Shown piece by piece: positions 80 to 41,899 of a DNA stretch of 44,784 bases. The translations under genes and the position numbers were made by a program. This stretch comes from Escherichia phage TL-2011b: sequence record JQ011317; one strand, 5' to 3'. The notes beneath the pieces are model-generated. The model was given only the letters and a program-made list of their open reading frames with translations. It made no database searches and was not told the origin of the DNA. How positions within the stretch are numbered: the first letter of the stretch is position 1; every line of letters begins with the position of its first letter.

Positions 80-134
80 TGTATTCATTTCTATTCACTC
101 TACACCATATTTTTCGGCGGTACAGGTGACGGTA

Positions 135-149
135 TTACCTTAAAGGTAT
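135..149. promoter_or_regulatory. TTACC-N5-GGTAT palindromic operator-like site upstream of the integrase gene
   Basis: TTACCTTAAAGGTAT, one mismatch to the TTACC-N5-GGTAA motif; 43 bp upstream of the int start. Confidence 0.45.
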
Positions 150-191
150 ACTCTCATACCGTCATGAAAATGGTTTCTATACGGGTGAATT

Positions 192-1439
192 GTGCTTACC
201 GATACAAAATTAAAAAACCTCAAGCCGCAGGACAAACTGTACAAGGTCTCCGATCGTGACGGGCTGTATGTAGCTGTGCTTACGTCAGGCACGGTCTCGT
301 TTCGCTATGACTACCGTATCAACGGTCGCCGCGAAACACTGGTAATCGGGCAGTATGGGCGTGACGGTATCAGCCTGGCAGAAGCGCGAGAAGAACTGAT
401 TGCTGCAAAGAAGCTGCTTAAAGCAGGCCAGTCACCGGCTGCGGCTAAACGTGACGGTATCAAAAAGATTCGTGGTGCCGAGACGTTTGCGGTACATACC
501 GACAGTTATATGAAACATGTCATCCTGGCTGACAGTACCCGCGCAATGAAGCAGGCGGTGATCGACCGTGACATACTTCCGGTTCTTGGCAACAAAATGA
601 TGACTGAAATTACCACATCGATGGTTCGTGATTTGTGTGACCGGATTGTCGAACGCGGTGGTCGGGCAACAGCAGTGCAGGCCAGGGAGATCATCAGCAG
701 CGTATACCGTCACGCCAATGACCGTGGTCATGGTTTGTTTAATCCTGCGGCTGACATTAAACCTTCGTCTATCGCCATATTTAAACCACGAGAGCGAACA
801 CTGACACCAGAAGAAATTGGCCTGTTCTTCCGCACGCTGGATGCCATTGGTGCTATGGGCACTATGAAAATGGCTTTAAAGCTGGTGCTTATCACTATGG
901 TTCGTAAAGGCGAATTCACCAATGCAACGTGGGACGAAATAGATTTTAAAAAATGGACATGGACAATTCCTTCAGACCGCATGAAGGGAAGCCGGGCGCA
1001 TGTTATTTACCTGCCTAAACAGGCACAGGATATATTGGTCGGGTTGCAGATGTACGCTGGTGGAAGTGAATATCTGGTTCCTGGTCGTTACAACTTCCGG
1101 AAGCCATTATCTAATGCCGCGCTGAACTCTCTGATCGACAGAACGGTGAAAATAATAAATGAAGATGGTGAGCATATTCAGGACTTCACCGTACATGATA
1201 TGCGCCGTACAGCCAGTACGTTGTTGCATGAGGCTGGTTATCCTTCAGACTGGATTGAAAAGGCTCTGGCACATGAGCAGAAAGGTGTGCGCGCCGTATA
1301 TAACAAAGCGGAATACGCCAGACAGCGCGCCTACATGTTGCAGCAGTGGGCCGATATGATTGATTCCTGGATTGACGGGGAGCATACGGATCTGATTCCG
1401 TTCTCCCCGTCGAAGTTTGAGAAGTGGATGGCGGGATAA
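192..1439 (+). CDS. int: Tyrosine recombinase / phage integrase (P4-type)
   Basis: 415-aa ORF, GTG start after in-frame stop; C-terminal catalytic signature (HDMRRT ... VRAVYNKAEY); N-terminal arm-binding-type domain. Confidence 0.9.
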   Translation: MLTDTKLKNLKPQDKLYKVSDRDGLYVAVLTSGTVSFRYDYRINGRRETLVIGQYGRDGISLAEAREELIAAKKLLKAGQSPAAAKRDGIKKIRGAETFAVHTDSYMKHVILADSTRAMKQAVIDRDILPVLGNKMMTEITTSMVRDLCDRIVERGGRATAVQAREIISSVYRHANDRGHGLFNPAADIKPSSIAIFKPRERTLTPEEIGLFFRTLDAIGAMGTMKMALKLVLITMVRKGEFTNATWDEIDFKKWTWTIPSDRMKGSRAHVIYLPKQAQDILVGLQMYAGGSEYLVPGRYNFRKPLSNAALNSLIDRTVKIINEDGEHIQDFTVHDMRRTASTLLHEAGYPSDWIEKALAHEQKGVRAVYNKAEYARQRAYMLQQWADMIDSWIDGEHTDLIPFSPSKFEKWMAG

Positions 1440-2952: not shown

Positions 2953-3001
2953 AAATACCTCTCTTGGTTGCAGTGCGGCGCGCGTGGCGCCGCGGTGGTG
3001 G

Positions 3002-14419: not shown

Positions 14420-14496
14420 TGGCGTGGCATGCAGGATTCGAACCTGCGACCAACCGCTTAGAAGGCGGTTGCTCTGTCCAACTGAGCTAATGCCAC
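14420..14496 (-). tRNA. tRNA-Arg (anticodon UCU)
   Basis: 77-nt cloverleaf folded by hand: acceptor GTGGCAT/ATGCCAC, D-stem GCTC/GAGC, anticodon stem ACCGC/GCGGT with loop CTTCTAA, T-arm GCAGG-TTCGAATC-CCTGC, encoded CCA. Confidence 0.85.
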
Positions 14497-31227: not shown

Positions 31228-31237
31228 AACAGCGAAG

Positions 31238-31250
31238 CCCCACGGTGGCC
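31238..31250. promoter_or_regulatory. Second Omnt-like palindrome between the arc-like and ant genes
   Basis: CCCCACGGTGGCC with core CCACGGTGG; flanked by inverted repeat GAAGCCC / GGGCTTC. Confidence 0.45.
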
Positions 31251-31299
31251 AGACCGTCAGGGCTTCAGTATCGTAAAACTACGTATAGGAATTAACGAC

Positions 31300-32244
31300 A
31301 TGACGAGTATAGCAACAGCGGTATCTACTATCAACGTGCCATTCCACGGCGCAGAGCTTTATGTTGTCAATCATAACGGCGAACCATACACCCCAATGAA
31401 ACCAGTCGTTGAAGGTATGGGGCTGGACTGGAAAACGCAGTTCCGCAAGTTGCAACAACGCTTTAAGAGCTGCATGGTCGAAATGACCATTCAGCTCCCC
31501 GGTGATACTCAGCGTCGTCTGGTTATCTGTCTTGCTTTACGCAAACTTGCAGGTTGGCTGCAAACCATCAGCCCTAACAAAGTCCGCCCTGAAATCCGCG
31601 ACAAGGTAATCCAGTATCAGGAAGAGTGTGACGATGTGCTCTACGAGTACTGGACTAAAGGCCATGTGGTTAACCCACGCAAAGCTAAAAAGGCGTTGCC
31701 GGGTAAAATAACAACTGAACAGCAGGAAGCCATTAAACAACTCGTCATGAGTCGCGGTCAGTCTCTGCCAAAAGAAAAACAGGCTAAGGCGATGATCACC
31801 ATGTGGTCGTCACTGAAATCTCATTTTGGCTGTTCGTACAAAGAAATTGGTGAAGATCAATTTGCCGAAGCGTTGTCTCTTGTTGCTCGGGTTCCGCTTG
31901 AAGGGGAGTATCTCCCTGCTGGATCTGCATCAGAGAATGATGAAGTGGCAGTCAAGATGTTAGATGCGCTTCGTGAGGCAATTAAAACACAGACAAAATG
32001 TTATGGTTATCCATTGAAGCCCGGCTACCGCAGTCTGATTCATTCTCCGTCTGGTGTTCTCGGTCTGACGGAGAACTCACTGCTGATGAATCTGCTGAAC
32101 CAGTTACAGGAAGACGGGCACGATGTATCGGGCGCGGCGGCGGAGCTGACCACCATGTTCTGTTACATCGTTGGTGTGAGCAAATGCCTGCGTGATATCC
32201 AGACGCACGCGGAGTACATCAACGACAAGGCAGGGTTCTTCTGA
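31300..32244 (+). CDS. Anti-repressor (Ant) family protein 1
   Basis: 314 aa; N-terminal antirepressor-type domain (INVPFHGAELYVVNHNGEPY); C-terminal 77 aa identical to the second Ant protein. Confidence 0.65.
   Translation: MTSIATAVSTINVPFHGAELYVVNHNGEPYTPMKPVVEGMGLDWKTQFRKLQQRFKSCMVEMTIQLPGDTQRRLVICLALRKLAGWLQTISPNKVRPEIRDKVIQYQEECDDVLYEYWTKGHVVNPRKAKKALPGKITTEQQEAIKQLVMSRGQSLPKEKQAKAMITMWSSLKSHFGCSYKEIGEDQFAEALSLVARVPLEGEYLPAGSASENDEVAVKMLDALREAIKTQTKCYGYPLKPGYRSLIHSPSGVLGLTENSLLMNLLNQLQEDGHDVSGAAAELTTMFCYIVGVSKCLRDIQTHAEYINDKAGFF
32008..32244. repeat. Inverted repeat arm A (3' end of ant1)
   Basis: Reverse complement is about 97% identical to 33420-33656 (3 mismatches in the first 84 bp compared by hand). 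Confidence 0.7.
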
Positions 32245-33419: not shown

Positions 33420-33656
33420 TCAGAAGAACCCTGCTTTGTCGTTGATGTACTCCGCGTGCGTCTGGATATCACGCAGGCATTTGCTCACACCGACGATGTA
33501 GCAGAACATGGTGGTCAGCTCCGCCGCCGCGCCCGATACGTCGTGCCCGTCTTCCTGTAACTGGTTCAGCAGATTCATCAGCAGTGAGTTCTCCGTCAGG
33601 CCGAGAACACCAGACGGCGAGTGAATCAGGCTGCGGTAGCCTGGCTTCAGCGGGGC
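33420..33656. repeat. Inverted repeat arm B (3' end of ant2)
   Basis: See arm A at 32008-32244. Confidence 0.7.
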
Positions 33657-34115
33657 GCTGTAGGTTTTGTTCTCTATCTTCATCGCCTGCATCACTGCTG
33701 ACGCCGTGGCGTTGGCTACCTGGTCGGCAACCATCTTTATGCGTTCTTCCTGCGGGAGCGAGTTTTTAATGTAACTTCCGGTGCGGCGGATCTGAGGAAG
33801 AACCTCACCTGTAACCCATTTACGAAAGCGGTAGGGGATAGTGCCTGGTGTCACCGCATCGCGGCAGCGGAGGATCAGTGTGTAGAGGCCTGACTCGGAG
33901 ATGATGATCGATTCTTGCTCACCGCCAGGGGTGTCGGTTGAAGCGACGCCCTTCTCATCATCATCAAGTTTTCGAACAGCATCTCGATGGTTTGCTATGC
34001 CTATAGCCCGACAAACATCTGAAGCGATAAACCATGGCTCACCATTAATGACGATTACCCGTATATCGGCTTGGGATTCGAAAGAAAAAATGGACGTGCT
34101 TTTTGTAGCTGTCAT
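33420..34115 (-). CDS. Anti-repressor (Ant/Bro-N) family protein 2
   Basis: 231 aa; Bro-N-like N-terminus (VIVINGEPWFIASDVCRAIGI); C-terminal 77 aa identical to ant1. Confidence 0.7.
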   Translation of the reverse strand: MTATKSTSIFSFESQADIRVIVINGEPWFIASDVCRAIGIANHRDAVRKLDDDEKGVASTDTPGGEQESIIISESGLYTLILRCRDAVTPGTIPYRFRKWVTGEVLPQIRRTGSYIKNSLPQEERIKMVADQVANATASAVMQAMKIENKTYSAPLKPGYRSLIHSPSGVLGLTENSLLMNLLNQLQEDGHDVSGAAAELTTMFCYIVGVSKCLRDIQTHAEYINDKAGFF

Positions 34116-34384
34116 AGTGGTTACCTTTTAGTCTGGTTAATCACCACTACCGACGCCAATCGGTTGGTGGTGAACTGTGCAGGGTTGGCGTAACCGGCTA
34201 AAAGGACCCGGCGCACCTTTCGGTGCCCCCACACAGCCCACCATAATACGAATGTGGCCGTGCTATACGCATAAAAAAACCGCTTGCGCGGTGAATGCGC
34301 CTTTTAGTAATCCGGGACGCCAATCCCGGCACTGGATTTTTCCAGTGCCCGATTACTATGGCACAAGAGGAGTGCGATGTAAAT

Positions 34385-35715: not shown

Positions 35716-37809
35716 ATGACGGTCTCAACCGAAGTTGACCACAACGAATACACCGGTAACGGTGTTACAACGACATTCCCTTATACCTTCAGGATTTTCC
35801 AGAAATCTGATTTAGTAGTGCAGGTTGTTGACCTGAACGAGAACATCACAGAGCTGATTCTTGACACTGATTACATAGTTACTGGGGCTGGAGGATACAA
35901 TGGTGGCAATATAATTCTGTCGAAGGCATTGGTTAGCGGTTATCTGATTTCTATATCACGAGAGCTCCCGGTTACGCAGGAAACTGATTTGCGTAATCAG
36001 GGTAAGTTCTTTGCAGAAGTGCATGAGGATGCTTTTGATAAGCTAACGATGCTGATCCAGCAGGTTCGAAGTTGGTTTAGCTTGGCGCTGCGTAAGCCGT
36101 CATTCGTGGCAAATTATTATGATGCGCTTAACAATTACATCAGAAACTTACGCGATCCTTCAACCCCCCAAGATGCAGCCACTAAAAATTATGTTGATAC
36201 ACAGCTCAGTTCTAACCTGGGGTGTACTTTGCGCGTTCAGGAGCAGATACCGCAACTTCCTGATGCTGCCTCCCGCGCAAACAAGATGCCTGCTTTCGAT
36301 AACGATGGTAACCCTATTGTTGTGCTTCCTCCATCAGGGTCTGCGTCTGACGTATTGATCGAGCTAGCCAAGCCAACTGGATCTGACTTGGTTGGTTATG
36401 GGTCACAGACGGTTAAAGCAACCCTTGATAGCCTGAATAGCATGCGGGAGGAGCTTCTTGATAAAACAGGATTTAATGCGCTGGGGCGCTTCCTTAATCT
36501 TTCAGAGCTTCGCTCCTGTGTTCCGGAGGAGGCAGGGCAGATTGTATACGTAGCATCAGCAGCTAGCACTACACATGCTGAAAACCACCTTGGTGGCGGC
36601 TTTTTCGAGTCTGTTGATAACATTCAGGCGTGGGCTGATGATGGTGGAATTGTAATCAAGCCAGAAACTGGAACGATGGTATGGAGACGAATTAATTTTA
36701 CCACTTACGACATGCAATTTTGGGGGGTGAAACCTGACGGAGTCACAGATAACGCAACAGCTATAACTCTTGCAACTAACTTTGCTCGCTCAAACAAATG
36801 CATTCTAGAGGCTCCTGCTGGAAACATAAATACATCAAAAACAATCCCAATTTATGACAATATGGGAATTAGAGGACAGGGAAAGGCTGAAGCGACAGTT
36901 TTTTATAAAACAACAAATGACAAAATAGATCTCACAAAAAATGGAGAAGTAATTCTTCAGGTGGATGCATTATGTGCTTTTATACCAAAGCAATGGGATC
37001 TAACAGATAACTCAATTAGTTCATTTTGTGTTAACGGTAGAGTTGAAAACTGCATGTTTAGAAGGCTTGGCTTAACACAAGAAAATGTAGATTCTTATAG
37101 AAATTATTACGGACTGTTTTTAGGAAAATCAGCAGCACCAGTTATCAGACAGTCAATTTTTGAATGTGCTTATATCGGATGCTTCTCTTATGTGCCGTTC
37201 TCTGGCGTAATGGAAATGGTCGGTTTCCCACAATATCCAGGGAAAGGATATGCTGGAGTTTTGTTTGAAGATTTTAGGGATGGTCAAATAAAAGTAATTG
37301 GCACTTCTATGGATATGCGCCTTGTTCAAGTTAATGGTTACCAGTTGTCATTTAGAATGTCCGGGATGCAATATACTACCATGACCAATTGTACAGCTGA
37401 AAACTGCACGCCAATGGATGGGGAATCAACTTGCTACGCATTTGATTTTGTAAATCCGTATTGCATTGTCATGAATACTTGTGCAACAGAATTTGTTAAA
37501 GGGGGGCAATTGCGTGTTAGCGTTCAGGGAAACCCATCATTCCGCCCATCTATTATTGTCAATGGCTTTCTACCAATTGACCAACAAAGTCCAGTAGTGC
37601 AAACACCTATAATTGATATTGACAATGGTGGTGTTGTTGAAATGAGTGTCATATTGAATGGTGGTGATTGGGCAATAAATCCATCGGCTGTAAATTTAAC
37701 TTCTCCAAAAGCAAGTGGTAATGGGTTGAAGGTAAGATTGATCGGTGTAAATGGCTCTCCTTCTTCGGTGTGGAGTGCGTCTTCTGGTGCAGAAGTAAGG
37801 GAGTTCTAA
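35716..37809 (+). CDS. Tailspike / tail fiber protein
   Basis: 697 aa; N-terminal virion-attachment-type domain followed by a long beta-rich C-terminal region; GGAGA Shine-Dalgarno. Confidence 0.65.
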   Translation: MTVSTEVDHNEYTGNGVTTTFPYTFRIFQKSDLVVQVVDLNENITELILDTDYIVTGAGGYNGGNIILSKALVSGYLISISRELPVTQETDLRNQGKFFAEVHEDAFDKLTMLIQQVRSWFSLALRKPSFVANYYDALNNYIRNLRDPSTPQDAATKNYVDTQLSSNLGCTLRVQEQIPQLPDAASRANKMPAFDNDGNPIVVLPPSGSASDVLIELAKPTGSDLVGYGSQTVKATLDSLNSMREELLDKTGFNALGRFLNLSELRSCVPEEAGQIVYVASAASTTHAENHLGGGFFESVDNIQAWADDGGIVIKPETGTMVWRRINFTTYDMQFWGVKPDGVTDNATAITLATNFARSNKCILEAPAGNINTSKTIPIYDNMGIRGQGKAEATVFYKTTNDKIDLTKNGEVILQVDALCAFIPKQWDLTDNSISSFCVNGRVENCMFRRLGLTQENVDSYRNYYGLFLGKSAAPVIRQSIFECAYIGCFSYVPFSGVMEMVGFPQYPGKGYAGVLFEDFRDGQIKVIGTSMDMRLVQVNGYQLSFRMSGMQYTTMTNCTAENCTPMDGESTCYAFDFVNPYCIVMNTCATEFVKGGQLRVSVQGNPSFRPSIIVNGFLPIDQQSPVVQTPIIDIDNGGVVEMSVILNGGDWAINPSAVNLTSPKASGNGLKVRLIGVNGSPSSVWSASSGAEVREF

Positions 37810-37820
37810 CTATACAAACA

Positions 37821-37875
37821 TTGACATAATTAATATGTTAATCTAATCTGCCGGAAATTTCAACCATTCCGGCAG
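37821..37875 (+). promoter_or_regulatory. Promoter-like element and 5' hairpin upstream of the acyltransferase gene
   Basis: TTGACA at 37821-37826; inverted repeat CTGCCGGAA / TTCCGGCAG (37848-37875) ends 4 nt before the ATG. Confidence 0.35.
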
Positions 37876-37879
37876 AGTT

Positions 37880-38986
37880 ATGAATAATAAAGGTAATATA
37901 ATTCAAAGTCTTACATCGTTGAGAATGTTTGCCGCTCTTGGTGTTTTTGTTAGTCACCTTGGGCTATTGTCTCAATCATCAATTGGTGTGTTTAATGCTG
38001 CGGCAAAGTATTTTTTTAATGGTTACATAGGTGTGACATTTTTCTACATTCTTTCTGGTTTTATTATAAACTATAGTTTCATAAATCATGTAGAAAAAGA
38101 AGCATTCAGCAATAAAGATTTTATTGTGTACAGAATAGCAAGAATATTTCCTGTGCATATTGTAGCTCTTCTTTGCTTTATTTTAATATTTATGCATGGT
38201 AAGATGGGTGATGGTATTAGTAAGGAAATGCTTATTTCAAATGTGTTTCTGGTGCAGTCATTCATCCCAATTCAGGATTATTATTTTTCTTTTAACTCCG
38301 TTTCATGGAGTATCTCATGTGAGATGTTTTTCTACGTTTCATTCTGCTTCTTAACAAGGCTAAAAACAAAATATTTAGTCTGTGTTCTGTTATTTGTTCT
38401 TGTGATTAATTTCTATTTCTTAATTAACCCGCCCATAACAATATCACAGCACTGGTTGTTTTATATAAACCCAGCATTTAGAATTGGTGATTTTATTATA
38501 GGGATGATGCTCTGTAGAGTATTTATTAATACTAGTGCAAGACCTAACAATACTGTTTGCAGTATCATTGAAATTGCATCAATATTGTCATTGCTTTTGA
38601 CAGTATATATAGCAACAAACTATATTACATATATGAATATAAAGTATGATGTTCTATATATTCCTTGCATGGCATTTATAGTTATTGCCTTTGCTTTTAA
38701 TGGTGGGATATTATCTAAAATTCTTAAAAATAGATTTATGGTTTTGCTTGGCGAGGCTTCTTTTTCATTTTATATGTTTCACTGGATGATTATTCAAATA
38801 GTAACAAAAATATTGAGCGTAGAAAAAGACAACTTTATCGATATGTTGGTGTATGTTGTTTTATCTTTGTTTGTTTCTATTATTGCATCAATACTATCAT
38901 TCAAGTTGATAGAAATGCCAATAAATAAAACAATAAGAAGATGTTGGAAAAAATATAGGGGGATGCAGTCTGTCAGGAGTGCATGA
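37880..38986 (+). CDS. Acyltransferase family 3 membrane protein (O-antigen O-acetyltransferase, serotype conversion)
   Basis: 368 aa, about 10 predicted TM helices, AT-rich; N-terminal R..AALGVFVSH pattern typical of acyltransferase-3 proteins. Confidence 0.75.
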   Translation: MNNKGNIIQSLTSLRMFAALGVFVSHLGLLSQSSIGVFNAAAKYFFNGYIGVTFFYILSGFIINYSFINHVEKEAFSNKDFIVYRIARIFPVHIVALLCFILIFMHGKMGDGISKEMLISNVFLVQSFIPIQDYYFSFNSVSWSISCEMFFYVSFCFLTRLKTKYLVCVLLFVLVINFYFLINPPITISQHWLFYINPAFRIGDFIIGMMLCRVFINTSARPNNTVCSIIEIASILSLLLTVYIATNYITYMNIKYDVLYIPCMAFIVIAFAFNGGILSKILKNRFMVLLGEASFSFYMFHWMIIQIVTKILSVEKDNFIDMLVYVVLSLFVSIIASILSFKLIEMPINKTIRRCWKKYRGMQSVRSA

Positions 38987-40042: not shown

Positions 40043-40661
40043 ACAATTCCAGCGAGCTGCTGGTATTAGCGAGGCGTTGGCCGCACGCTGGTTCTCGCAT
40101 ATAACTTCTGCGATGAAAGAGTTTGGTATCAGCAAAACCGAAGATCAGGCAATGTTTATTGCTCAGGTCGGGCATGAGTCTGGTGGTTTCACCCGGTTGC
40201 AGGAGAATTTCAACTACAGTGTCAGCGGTCTAGCTAACTTCGTTCGGGCTGGGCGTCTCACTCAGGGGCAGGCTAATGCACTGGGTCGCCGTGCTGGTGA
40301 ACCACCATTGCCACTTGAGCGCCAGCGCGCGATCGCAAATCTGGTATACAGCAAACGCATGGGTAACAATGCTCCCGGCGATGGCTGGAATTACCGTGGG
40401 CGCGGGCTTATCCAGATTACCGGTTTGAATAACTATCGTGACTGTGGAAACGGTCTGAAAGTTGACCTGCTGGAGAATCCTGAACTGCTGGCGCAGGACG
40501 AATACGCGGCTCGTAGCGCGGCGTGGTTCTTCTCCGGCAAAGGCTGCATGAAGTATACCGGCGATATTGCTCGTGTAACTCTGATTATCAATGGTGGCAG
40601 GAACGGCATAGACGACCGGCGAGCGCGATACATCACTGCCAGTAAGGTGCTGACGGTATGA
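40032..40661 (+). CDS. Endolysin, glycoside hydrolase family 19-like
   Basis: Motifs [12 protein letters not shown] and [12 protein letters not shown] typical of GH19 lysozyme-like endolysins. Confidence 0.75.
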
Positions 40662-41140
40662 TCCTGACATTCGTAAAATCATATTGGAAACAGCTGCTTA
40701 TCGTGTTGATGCTTGCTGCTCTGTTCATCGTCGGAGTGGTTGCCTGGAATATACACGGCAGCCGCCAGTACGATGCCGGGTATGCGCAGGCGGAAGAAGA
40801 CCGCAAAGCCGAAGAAGACAAAGTTCGTCAGTACTACGAACAGGAGAAAGTGACCAATGAACGTGAAGCGCAGCAGAGAATCGATCAGGCGCGCAGTGAT
40901 GCTCTTGATGCTGCCGCTCGCGCTGGCAGGTTGCAGCGACAGCTCGTTGCCATCCGTGAGCAGCTCAGGCAATATAACGCCATTGTCGGCGCTGGGGCGT
41001 CAGCCGCAGATACCGGAGTTTTGCTTGCCGACGTGTTCAGCAAATCTCTCGAGAGAAATAGACAACTGGCAGAGTATGCTGACCGGGCAGCCGAAGCCGG
41101 AAGAGTCTGCGAAAAACAGTATGACACCCTGACCAGATAG
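40658..41140 (+). CDS. i-spanin (Rz-like)
   Basis: N-terminal TM helix then coiled-coil periplasmic domain; last gene of the lysis cassette. Confidence 0.6.
40857..41132 (+). CDS. o-spanin (Rz1-like lipoprotein) embedded in the +1 frame of the i-spanin gene
   Basis: Lipobox LALAGC after a positively charged N-region; Pro/Ser-rich mature part; AGGAGA Shine-Dalgarno. Confidence 0.5.
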   Translation: MNVKRSRESIRRAVMLLMLPLALAGCSDSSLPSVSSSGNITPLSALGRQPQIPEFCLPTCSANLSREIDNWQSMLTGQPKPEESAKNSMTP

Positions 41141-41250
41141 CATGGTATTTTTCATGGTACTGATTTCCGGTGACGGTATATAAAACGGTACGGGAAAAAT
41201 TGAGCTTTGGAAAAATGTTACCACTCAATTGGTTATGGTATCCGTAAATA

Positions 41251-41265
41251 ATTGAGTGGGAATGA
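41251..41265 (+). other. guaA: Orphan 3' terminus of guaA (IEWE-stop) at the right prophage junction
   Basis: ATTGAGTGGGAATGA encodes IEWE-stop, the GMP synthase C-terminus, with an in-frame stop just upstream; inverted copy CCACTCAATT at 41221-41230. Confidence 0.5.
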
Positions 41266-41295
41266 TTTTAATCCCTGCACTATGAATGAACAAAA

Positions 41296-41321
41296 CCCTC
41301 TGTTACTACAGAGGGTTTTTT
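41296..41321. terminator. Native guaA/yfgI bidirectional terminator
   Basis: Stem CCCTCTG / CAGAGGG, loop TTACTA, then TTTTTT; second hairpin CTTCAAG / CTTGAAG at 41325-41347. Confidence 0.6.
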
Positions 41322-41359
41322 ATCTTCAAGAATCATAGGCTTGAAGTTACTAACATCGA

Positions 41360-41899
41360 TTAATTAAACCAGCTGTCCGATTTGTTCTCTTCTGCTTTGC
41401 CCACGCTTTTCATCAGATCGCGACCGCCTTCAGTCATATTTCTGTTGGCGTCAGCTTCAGATTGCACCACATCGGTTTGCGCAGCTTTGTGCTTCAGTTC
41501 CTGATCGATAAATTCGTTTTCTCGCTTAACGCGGGCTTCTTCTTTCGCCAGCGCCAGTTTTTGTTTCTGAATCTCTAAGCTGCGTAGCTCATCTTCATAA
41601 CTTTGATCGCGTTTTTTGTCCGCAGAGGCTTCGGCGTCCAGTTTATCCTGACGAGCTTTCTTATTTGCTGCTGCCGTTGCCGCTCTTTTGTTAGCGGCGG
41701 CCTGGGCATTTGCGCGACGTTGCTTCTCTTGCTGGATTTCCCTGTTGCGCTCCGCGACCCATTCGTCATGCTGCCTTTGCTCTTCATTTTTACCTTGCTG
41801 TTCAGCTTCTGCTACAGCAGAGAGTTGATCCTGCAATGATGAGGCGATAGCCGGATAGCTTAAGGAGGCCAAGATGGCGCAAAGAAAAACTTTCTTCAT
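41360..41899 (-). CDS. yfgI: Host periplasmic coiled-coil protein, YfgI-like
   Basis: 179-aa ORF with signal peptide; size and gene order match yfgI-yfgH-yfgG-yfgF next to guaA as recalled for E. coli. Confidence 0.5.
   Translation of the reverse strand: MKKVFLCAILASLSYPAIASSLQDQLSAVAEAEQQGKNEEQRQHDEWVAERNREIQQEKQRRANAQAAANKRAATAAANKKARQDKLDAEASADKKRDQSYEDELRSLEIQKQKLALAKEEARVKRENEFIDQELKHKAAQTDVVQSEADANRNMTEGGRDLMKSVGKAEENKSDSWFN

Follow-up and report, generated by a model that had tools for sequence, protein, structure and literature searches.

How does a prophage that inserts at the very end of a gene leave both this gene and the termination of its transcription in order? The question is raised by the right end of the DNA of Escherichia phage TL-2011b (JQ011317), analysed here as one stretch of 44,784 nucleotides (hereafter, the window), where a short copy of the end of guaA, the GMP synthase gene, precedes a terminator closely resembling one found at the opposite end of the prophage. 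We are highly confident that positions 41221-41347 constitute the attR of an epsilon15/phiV10-type (Uetakevirus) prophage of approximately 41,266 bp, inserted by its integrase at a 17-bp core in guaA, with a swap of terminators.

Integration of this type has been described before, including the sequence of the core. An O103:H25 outbreak strain was noted to carry a phiV10-like prophage at guaA (PMC3293862). In vB_EcoP_ZX5, a close relative of the window prophage in which excision and integration were demonstrated by experiment, the attP core is attgagtgggaatgatt, 190 bp from the integrase gene, and attB is the same core at the guaA 3' end, as verified by junction PCR and Sanger sequencing; the 17-mer was published as the attP/attB core for ZX5, phiV10 and epsilon15 (PMC9782041). 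In the GenBank record of epsilon15 (AY150271), the att region bears annotations for 10-mers bound by integrase, for IHF sites and for a rho-independent terminator, and in that of phiV10 (DQ126339) the att-region terminator is annotated. The attR studied here is ordinary, except that the phage carries a near-copy of the E. coli guaA terminator. This likeness goes without mention in PMC9782041 and in the epsilon15 and phiV10 records, and is the only detail, a minor one, that these sources had not already stated.

Extent and Gene Content of the Prophage

Sequence comparison placed a 41.3-kb Uetakevirus prophage between guaA and yfgI. The first 25 kb of the window share 97.5% identity with ZX5, 87% of the length being covered. 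Positions 1-1500 were found in approximately 560 complete E. coli genomes, and the guaA-attL junction in 568 of 5426 (approximately 10%). An attP of 716 nt, reconstructed by joining window positions 40951-41267 to 2-400, was 100% covered and contiguous in the free phages ZX5, phiV10, epsilon15, SPN1S, BUCT554 (an Enterobacter phage) and BUCT711 (a Klebsiella phage), with an identity of 96-98% for ZX5 and phiV10 and of 85-86% for epsilon15 and SPN1S.

The first prophage gene (192-1439, + strand) encodes a P4-type tyrosine integrase of 415 aa, according to the Pfam domains Arm-DNA-bind_3, Phage_int_M and Phage_integrase and to RefSeq annotation, and it starts 190 bp after the core, as reported for ZX5 (PMC9782041). 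The last phage gene before attR (40658-41140, + strand) encodes an Rz-like spanin (DUF2514; Pfam E-value 1.9e-43; phage record annotations). The gene following the right-hand terminator, which a first reading of this DNA from the sequence alone (hereafter, the sequence-only reading) had called yfgI-like, is indeed yfgI (DUF5384; 41360-41899, - strand), as indicated by RefSeq on identical DNA and by PF17358. On the right-hand side of the prophage, host genes begin with yfgI, in a stretch 100% identical to DH5alpha.

Other modules of the prophage deserve mention. A tRNA-Arg gene (anticodon TCT; 14420-14496, - strand), also annotated in the related O157 typing phages 9 and 10, is the only tRNA gene of the window, and the att site is therefore not of the tRNA type. 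An Rfam scan of the whole window found no family at either att region. Above the gathering score, it returned the C4 antisense RNA, the isrK Hfq-binding RNA and sar RNA (34163-34248, 34273-34348 and 31231-31298, all on the - strand), adjoining two genes, one antirepressor-like with P22_AR_N (31300-32244) and the other with Bro-N (33420-34115). Taken as a whole, these RNAs and genes look like an antirepressor/immunity module controlled by antisense RNA. Further along, 35716-38986 (+ strand) holds a tailspike-like ORF of 697 aa, whose pectate-lyase-like match is weak, and then codes for an Acyl_transf_3 protein of 368 aa. This stretch is probably an O-antigen acetylation module of the kind described in phiV10, with a putative role in serotype conversion and superinfection immunity.

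Core, Junctions and Strand Exchange

The attR core, ATTGAGTGGGAATGATT, lies at 41251-41267 (+ strand). It comprises the codons for IEWE, the last four sense codons of guaA, followed by the stop codon and two more bases. This 17-mer occurs once within the window, since the attL core reaches into the window by a single base, its last (window base 1, + strand), and its other 16 bases, the guaA stop codon among them, lie upstream. The attL core was accordingly taken from MS8345, a lysogen 99.9% identical to the window, and not from the source strain itself. In MS8345 (locus L001), guaA ends in ...ACTATTGAGTGGGAATGA followed by TT, the second T being window base 1; the gene ends (with ATTGAGTGGGAATGA) at 2999 and the core occupies 2985-3001, window base 1 being position 3001. 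The attL core was thus found directly upstream of the window, where the sequence-only reading had predicted it.

Comparison with uninfected genomes sets both boundaries to the base. DH5alpha and thousands of other genomes match the window from 41251 rightwards, while on the left the empty E. coli genomes match the guaA-attL junction only up to the last core base, where non-lysogen similarity to attL stops exactly. In a four-way alignment of att sites, the attL and attR cores are identical 17-mers and the bases on either side differ at once. In the empty site, as in DH5alpha, there is a single core, which extends across the guaA stop codon. An uninfected reference had been proposed as a check, and DH5alpha provides it, as its guaA ends in IEWE-stop and is followed by the same terminator and then by yfgI. 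These junction comparisons bear out the proposal that the prophage is integrated at the guaA 3' end and that 41251-41265 is a copy of that end, and nothing observed contradicts the attR assignment.

From a mechanistic point of view, the prophage would be inserted by site-specific recombination of a tyrosine integrase into ATTGAGTGGGAATGATT, across the guaA stop codon. Confinement of strand exchange to the 17-bp identity restores guaA exactly and leaves a second copy of its last 15 bases at attR. The overlap is probably GAGTGGG, between the half-sites AATAATT (in attP; AACTATT in attB) and AATGATT, and this proposed overlap fits the crossover motif proposed for the unrelated island GIsul2, GAGTGGGA, which lies inside the same core. 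The description of ATTGAGTGGGAATGA at 41251-41265 as encoding IEWE-stop, with an in-frame TAA two codons upstream (41245-41247), was exact; this upstream stop is explained by the phage P-arm DNA that precedes the attR copy.

What Integration Replaces at guaA

The guaA gene is rebuilt base for base in the lysogen, and its product bears the same accession, WP_000138282.1, in the lysogen MS8345 and in the non-lysogen DH5alpha. What the phage swaps in lies downstream, and consists of a 3' untranslated spacer (46 nt, vs. 28 nt in the native arrangement) and a terminator. The phage P' spacer (2-45, + strand) that replaces the native one is common to attL and attP in the alignment, where attB and attR lack it. 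This qualifies two earlier statements. The copy at attR had been called a displaced gene end; a guaA end is indeed duplicated there, but the term is overstated, since only the 17-bp identity core is duplicated. Moreover, attP had been expected to carry a substitute guaA 3' end, which also goes too far: only the identical last 15 coding bases and two more are carried, and the substitute is the 3' UTR with its terminator.

The stronger version of that expectation is that the phage brings a genuine substitute for the guaA 3' coding end and alters the C-terminus of GuaA, as phage 21 and e14 do at icd. The IEWE-stop copy in attP is certainly phage-borne and, depending on the crossover point within the core, the end of guaA after integration may be physically phage-derived. 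However, the guaA-like phage sequence amounts to 15 coding bases only, with the in-frame TAA and unrelated DNA directly to its left; there is no diverged coding segment, and the GuaA accession is the same with and without the prophage. We regard this explanation as very improbable, and the four-way att alignment refutes its strong form, an icd-type substitute coding end. Restoration of the native guaA, with an exchange of the untranslated DNA downstream, remains our reading.

The Two Terminators

The phage-borne intrinsic terminator (46-79, + strand) consists of the stem AACCCTCTGT/ACAGAGGGTT, a TTTT loop and the tail TTTGTTTTT. It is indicated by a terminator scan, by its fold, by its conservation and by the annotation of epsilon15 and phiV10. 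The native terminator (41292-41321) lies between the convergent genes guaA and yfgI and is present in empty sites. Both had been located from the letters alone, and both descriptions were accurate: CCCTCTGT-tttt-ACAGAGGG followed by TTTTTGTTTTT at 48-79 on the phage side, and the same stem with another loop, CCCTCTGT-tact-ACAGAGGG followed by T6, at 41296-41321 on the host side, where an A-U extension widens the stem to 41292-41319. Both sites combine a G+C-rich stem-loop with a T run, 3' of a gene on the same strand (guaA, or the lysis genes), and both hairpins are terminator-like in the scan, with folding energies of -20.1 kcal/mol for the host (z = -5.4) and -17.7 kcal/mol for the phage (z = -5.1), relative to shuffled sequences. 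The minus strand of the host hairpin folds as well (-18.6 kcal/mol) and, flanked by A and T runs on either side, this hairpin looks bidirectional, shared by guaA and yfgI.

This native bidirectional terminator comes 26 nt after the guaA stop codon in the empty site, ahead of yfgI; integration parts guaA from it and moves it 41 kb away. The terminator of the P' arm, 46 nt after the core, is predicted to end guaA transcription in the lysogen and to shield the integrase gene from guaA read-through. The lysis operon is predicted to end at the P' terminator in the free phage and at the host terminator in the prophage; in the lysogen, the latter is thus predicted to follow the phage lysis operon and still to serve yfgI. 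As the P' terminator lies 3' of the lysis genes and attP in the free phage, each transcription unit would meet an equivalent terminator in either state.

Because the two terminators are direct repeats that bracket almost the whole prophage, they could also be regarded as functional repeats, either as parts of an extended att site or as substrates for RecA-mediated loss of the prophage. Their sequences do favour such a role, with 25 of 27 positions identical, but the breakpoints of similarity are at the edges of the 17-bp core and not at the terminators, and the unrelated spacers between the core and the terminators place the latter outside the crossover region. The scar that such a deletion would leave (guaA, P' spacer, terminator and yfgI) was absent from the 5426 E. 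coli genomes, in which the best full-length matches were empty sites (89.4% identity). We consider this explanation very improbable, and retain the terminators as putative transcription signals that flank, and do not form, the recombination site.

Origin of the Phage Terminator

The near-identity of the two terminators is far above random expectation. The pattern CCCTCTGTNNNNACAGAGGG matched only these two sites in the window, even with two mismatches, for a chance expectation of 0.01. When the phage and host arms were aligned locally, the best score was 44, vs. a mean of 15.7 and a maximum of 30 for shuffled sequences, and none of the 2000 shuffles reached this score. Across the eight Uetakevirus attP regions compared, from phages of four host genera, the phage terminator hardly changes, while the neighbouring 12-15 nt vary freely. 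Its stem shows two changes only, in epsilon15 and Tyrion, both from A to G; a G-U pair is kept in each case, which fits selection on RNA structure and hints at it.

Terminators of other hosts were compared at empty sites reached through YfgI homologues, those of E. albertii, Citrobacter and S. bongori being informative and that of S. enterica not, as yfgI is there separated from guaA by other genes. The native stems are CCCTCCG/GGAGGG in E. albertii and GCCCTCT/AGAGGGC in Citrobacter; S. bongori has ACCTCTG/CAGAGGT near yfgI and ACCCGC/GCGGGT near guaA. These related stems make the host element look vertically inherited. None of these orthologous terminators is as close to the E. coli terminator as the phage stem is, and this proximity to the E. 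coli version favours a common origin. The 25/27 identity thus most likely reflects such an origin, and the likeliest route, judged from the sequences, would be that an ancestral phage captured a guaA terminator of the Escherichia type. The captured terminator may since have been kept under selection at the RNA level; the direction of transfer is itself inferred.

Convergence or chance could also produce two independent terminators sharing an 8-bp stem. Intrinsic terminators are constrained in composition, their stems being G+C-rich and their flanks made of A and T, the identity is confined to 27 nt between unrelated spacers, and other islands that target guaA have a different terminator, AAGCCCGC...GCGGGCTT. 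Beyond the terminator, the gapped alignment of phage and host arms showed approximately 50% identity, which is not convincing as homology. Yet the identity includes the flanks of the stem, and the shuffles, the rarity of the stem pattern and the closeness of the phage stem to the E. coli terminator all speak against independent origins. We therefore consider convergence unlikely, although it keeps more weight than any of the other alternatives, and favour common origin.

A further step would be to propose a "terminator mimicry," with the captured guaA/yfgI terminator being selected throughout the genus, whatever the host, to keep the guaA 3' end equivalent and int insulated. We advance this only tentatively, as a possibility somewhat short of even. 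If it were true, the terminator would be part of the design of an att site located at the end of a highly expressed gene and, together with the GIsul2-like islands that also terminate approximately 50 nt after the core, it would make terminator replacement a general requirement of this site.

Arm Repeats and the Inverted Copy of the Core

The arms of the att site bear repeats of the 10-mer GTGACGGTAT. A repeat scan located this arm-type repeat on the P' arm at 126-135 (+ strand), the homologous 10-mers being annotated as integrase-binding in epsilon15, with further P' copies at 156-165 (- strand, one mismatch), 361-370, 451-460 and 704-713 (- strand). On the P arm, the copy at 41170-41179 (+ strand) is invariant in five of the eight phage attP extracts, namely those that include this stretch. 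With at most one mismatch, 12 matches were found vs. 2.0 expected, and all six exact copies lie within approximately 700 bp of the core. We infer that these repeats are putative Int-binding sites.

The P arm also carries, at 41221-41230 (+ strand), CCACTCAATT, which repeats the left part of the core in inverted orientation. The sequence-only reading had pointed it out, and the copy is exact, being the perfect reverse complement of 41250-41259; it is, however, complete (10/10) in the window phage only and partly conserved elsewhere, three other Uetakevirus attP sites keeping 9 of its 10 bases, a further three keeping 8, and epsilon15 keeping 6. It overlaps ACTCAATTGGTTA (41223-41235), a motif that resembles the IHF consensus. 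This consensus, WATCAANNNNTTR, has one match with one mismatch on each strand, at 41223-41235 and 41257-41245, with a p-value of approximately 0.15 that is not significant alone; the minus-strand match is the mirror image of the other and covers the core. The bases of the inverted copy that are invariant across phages, TCAAT and TTA, fit the IHF-like motif as well as the inverted repeat, and the stretch homologous to the inverted copy is annotated as an IHF site in the epsilon15 record (AY150271). The inverted copy is probably a protein-binding element of the P arm, with IHF or an additional Int core-type site as candidates.

The same inverted repeat (41221-41230/41250-41259) might instead have been selected as a hairpin, in DNA or RNA, for example to signal processing or termination downstream of the lysis genes, and not be a protein-binding site or an accident of one lineage. 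It folds as an 11-bp stem with an inner stem (-21.1 kcal/mol, z = -4.6), and we estimate at approximately 1 in 1000 the chance of a perfect 10-bp inverted repeat so near the core. The right arm of the repeat is nevertheless fixed by guaA, and the left arm, besides its limited conservation in epsilon15, undergoes a mid-stem change from C to G in four of the eight phages, creating a G-G mismatch that breaks the pairing, while the invariant bases suit the IHF consensus with a single mismatch. Because half of the related phages carry this stem-breaking change, the hairpin reading is disfavoured and seems to us improbable, and a protein-binding element is preferred.

Other Elements and Hosts at the guaA End

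The guaA end is shared well beyond E. coli. The 16-mer ATTGAGTGGGAATGAT is identical in at least 120 species of many phyla, mostly non-enteric among the matches listed (loci L010-L129, for example L049 4585-4600, L051 5549-5564, L056 1004-1019, L108 and L126). The matches listed, at least 120 loci, come without E. coli or Salmonella empty sites. Among them, many loci, of Pseudomonas, Citrobacter, Tatumella and others, have the 16-mer followed by a common arm, 'tc.gcgtctggca...ggca...aagcccgcgtaattgcgggcttttt', suggesting that a second, GIsul2-like family of integrative elements is widespread at the guaA end. Among the same matches, these GIsul2-like elements have their own terminator approximately 45-55 nt after the core.

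Variation was also observed at the target. TAA replaces TGA as the stop codon of guaA in E. albertii and Citrobacter portucalensis (ATTGAGTGGGAATAA; loci L136/L137 2188-2225 and L134/L135 2137-2175, reverse strand). Their attB and the phage core consequently disagree at position 14, which lies outside the proposed overlap GAGTGGG, and this difference might affect the efficiency of integration in these hosts. In a Salmonella enterica contig (L130/L131 2029-3528), an 89-aa gene and a DUF1254/DUF1214 gene, and not guaA, lie next to yfgI; the neighbourhood of yfgI is thus unlike that of E. coli and S. bongori. In E. coli itself, the uninterrupted guaA-yfgI empty site was found in only 4463 of the 5426 genomes, next to the 568 with the phage attL. 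Several hundred genomes are thus probably rearranged at the guaA end or occupied there by something else.

The value of these results lies mainly in annotation, as they fix the exact boundaries of the prophage, establish that guaA is intact in the lysogen, and explain a stray "IEWE-stop" fragment that is open to misreading as a pseudogene. That elements at the guaA end bring their own terminator, nearly identical to that of E. coli in the case of Uetakevirus, is a mildly useful addition, and the locus offers a small, testable example of integrating elements that spare the expression of their target gene.

Comparison With Known Systems

The closest known systems are ZX5, phiV10 and epsilon15, which share with the window prophage the identical 17-bp core ATTGAGTGGGAATGATT at the guaA 3' end, the gene order (endolysin, Rz/Rz1, attP, terminator and int), the same terminator, the same GTGACGGTAT repeats and an int start 190 bp from the core. 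The prophage described here is larger, approximately 41.3 kb vs. 39.1-39.6 kb, and its accessory modules differ, but nothing essential does. The islands of the GIsul2 family have the same target, the ultraconserved guaA end, GIsul2 being known to integrate at the guaA 3' end with GAGTGGGA as its proposed crossover motif; they differ in being mobilizable islands and not phages, with att sites of 19 bp (PMC9376610). Their arm sequences are also unrelated ('tctggca...' repeats) and their terminator stem is AAGCCCGC.

Insertion at the 3' end of an essential or conserved gene has classical precedents. Phage 21 and e14 at icd, and the tRNA-gene phages P4 (at leuX) and P22 (at thrW), all insert in this way and carry a copy that keeps the gene intact; they replace more of the gene end, often with a diverged sequence. 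At guaA, only 15 identical coding bases are duplicated, and it is the untranslated spacer and the terminator that are replaced. Since guaA is rebuilt base for base, and GuaA keeps the same accession, the present system is therefore unlike that of phage 21 or e14 at icd.
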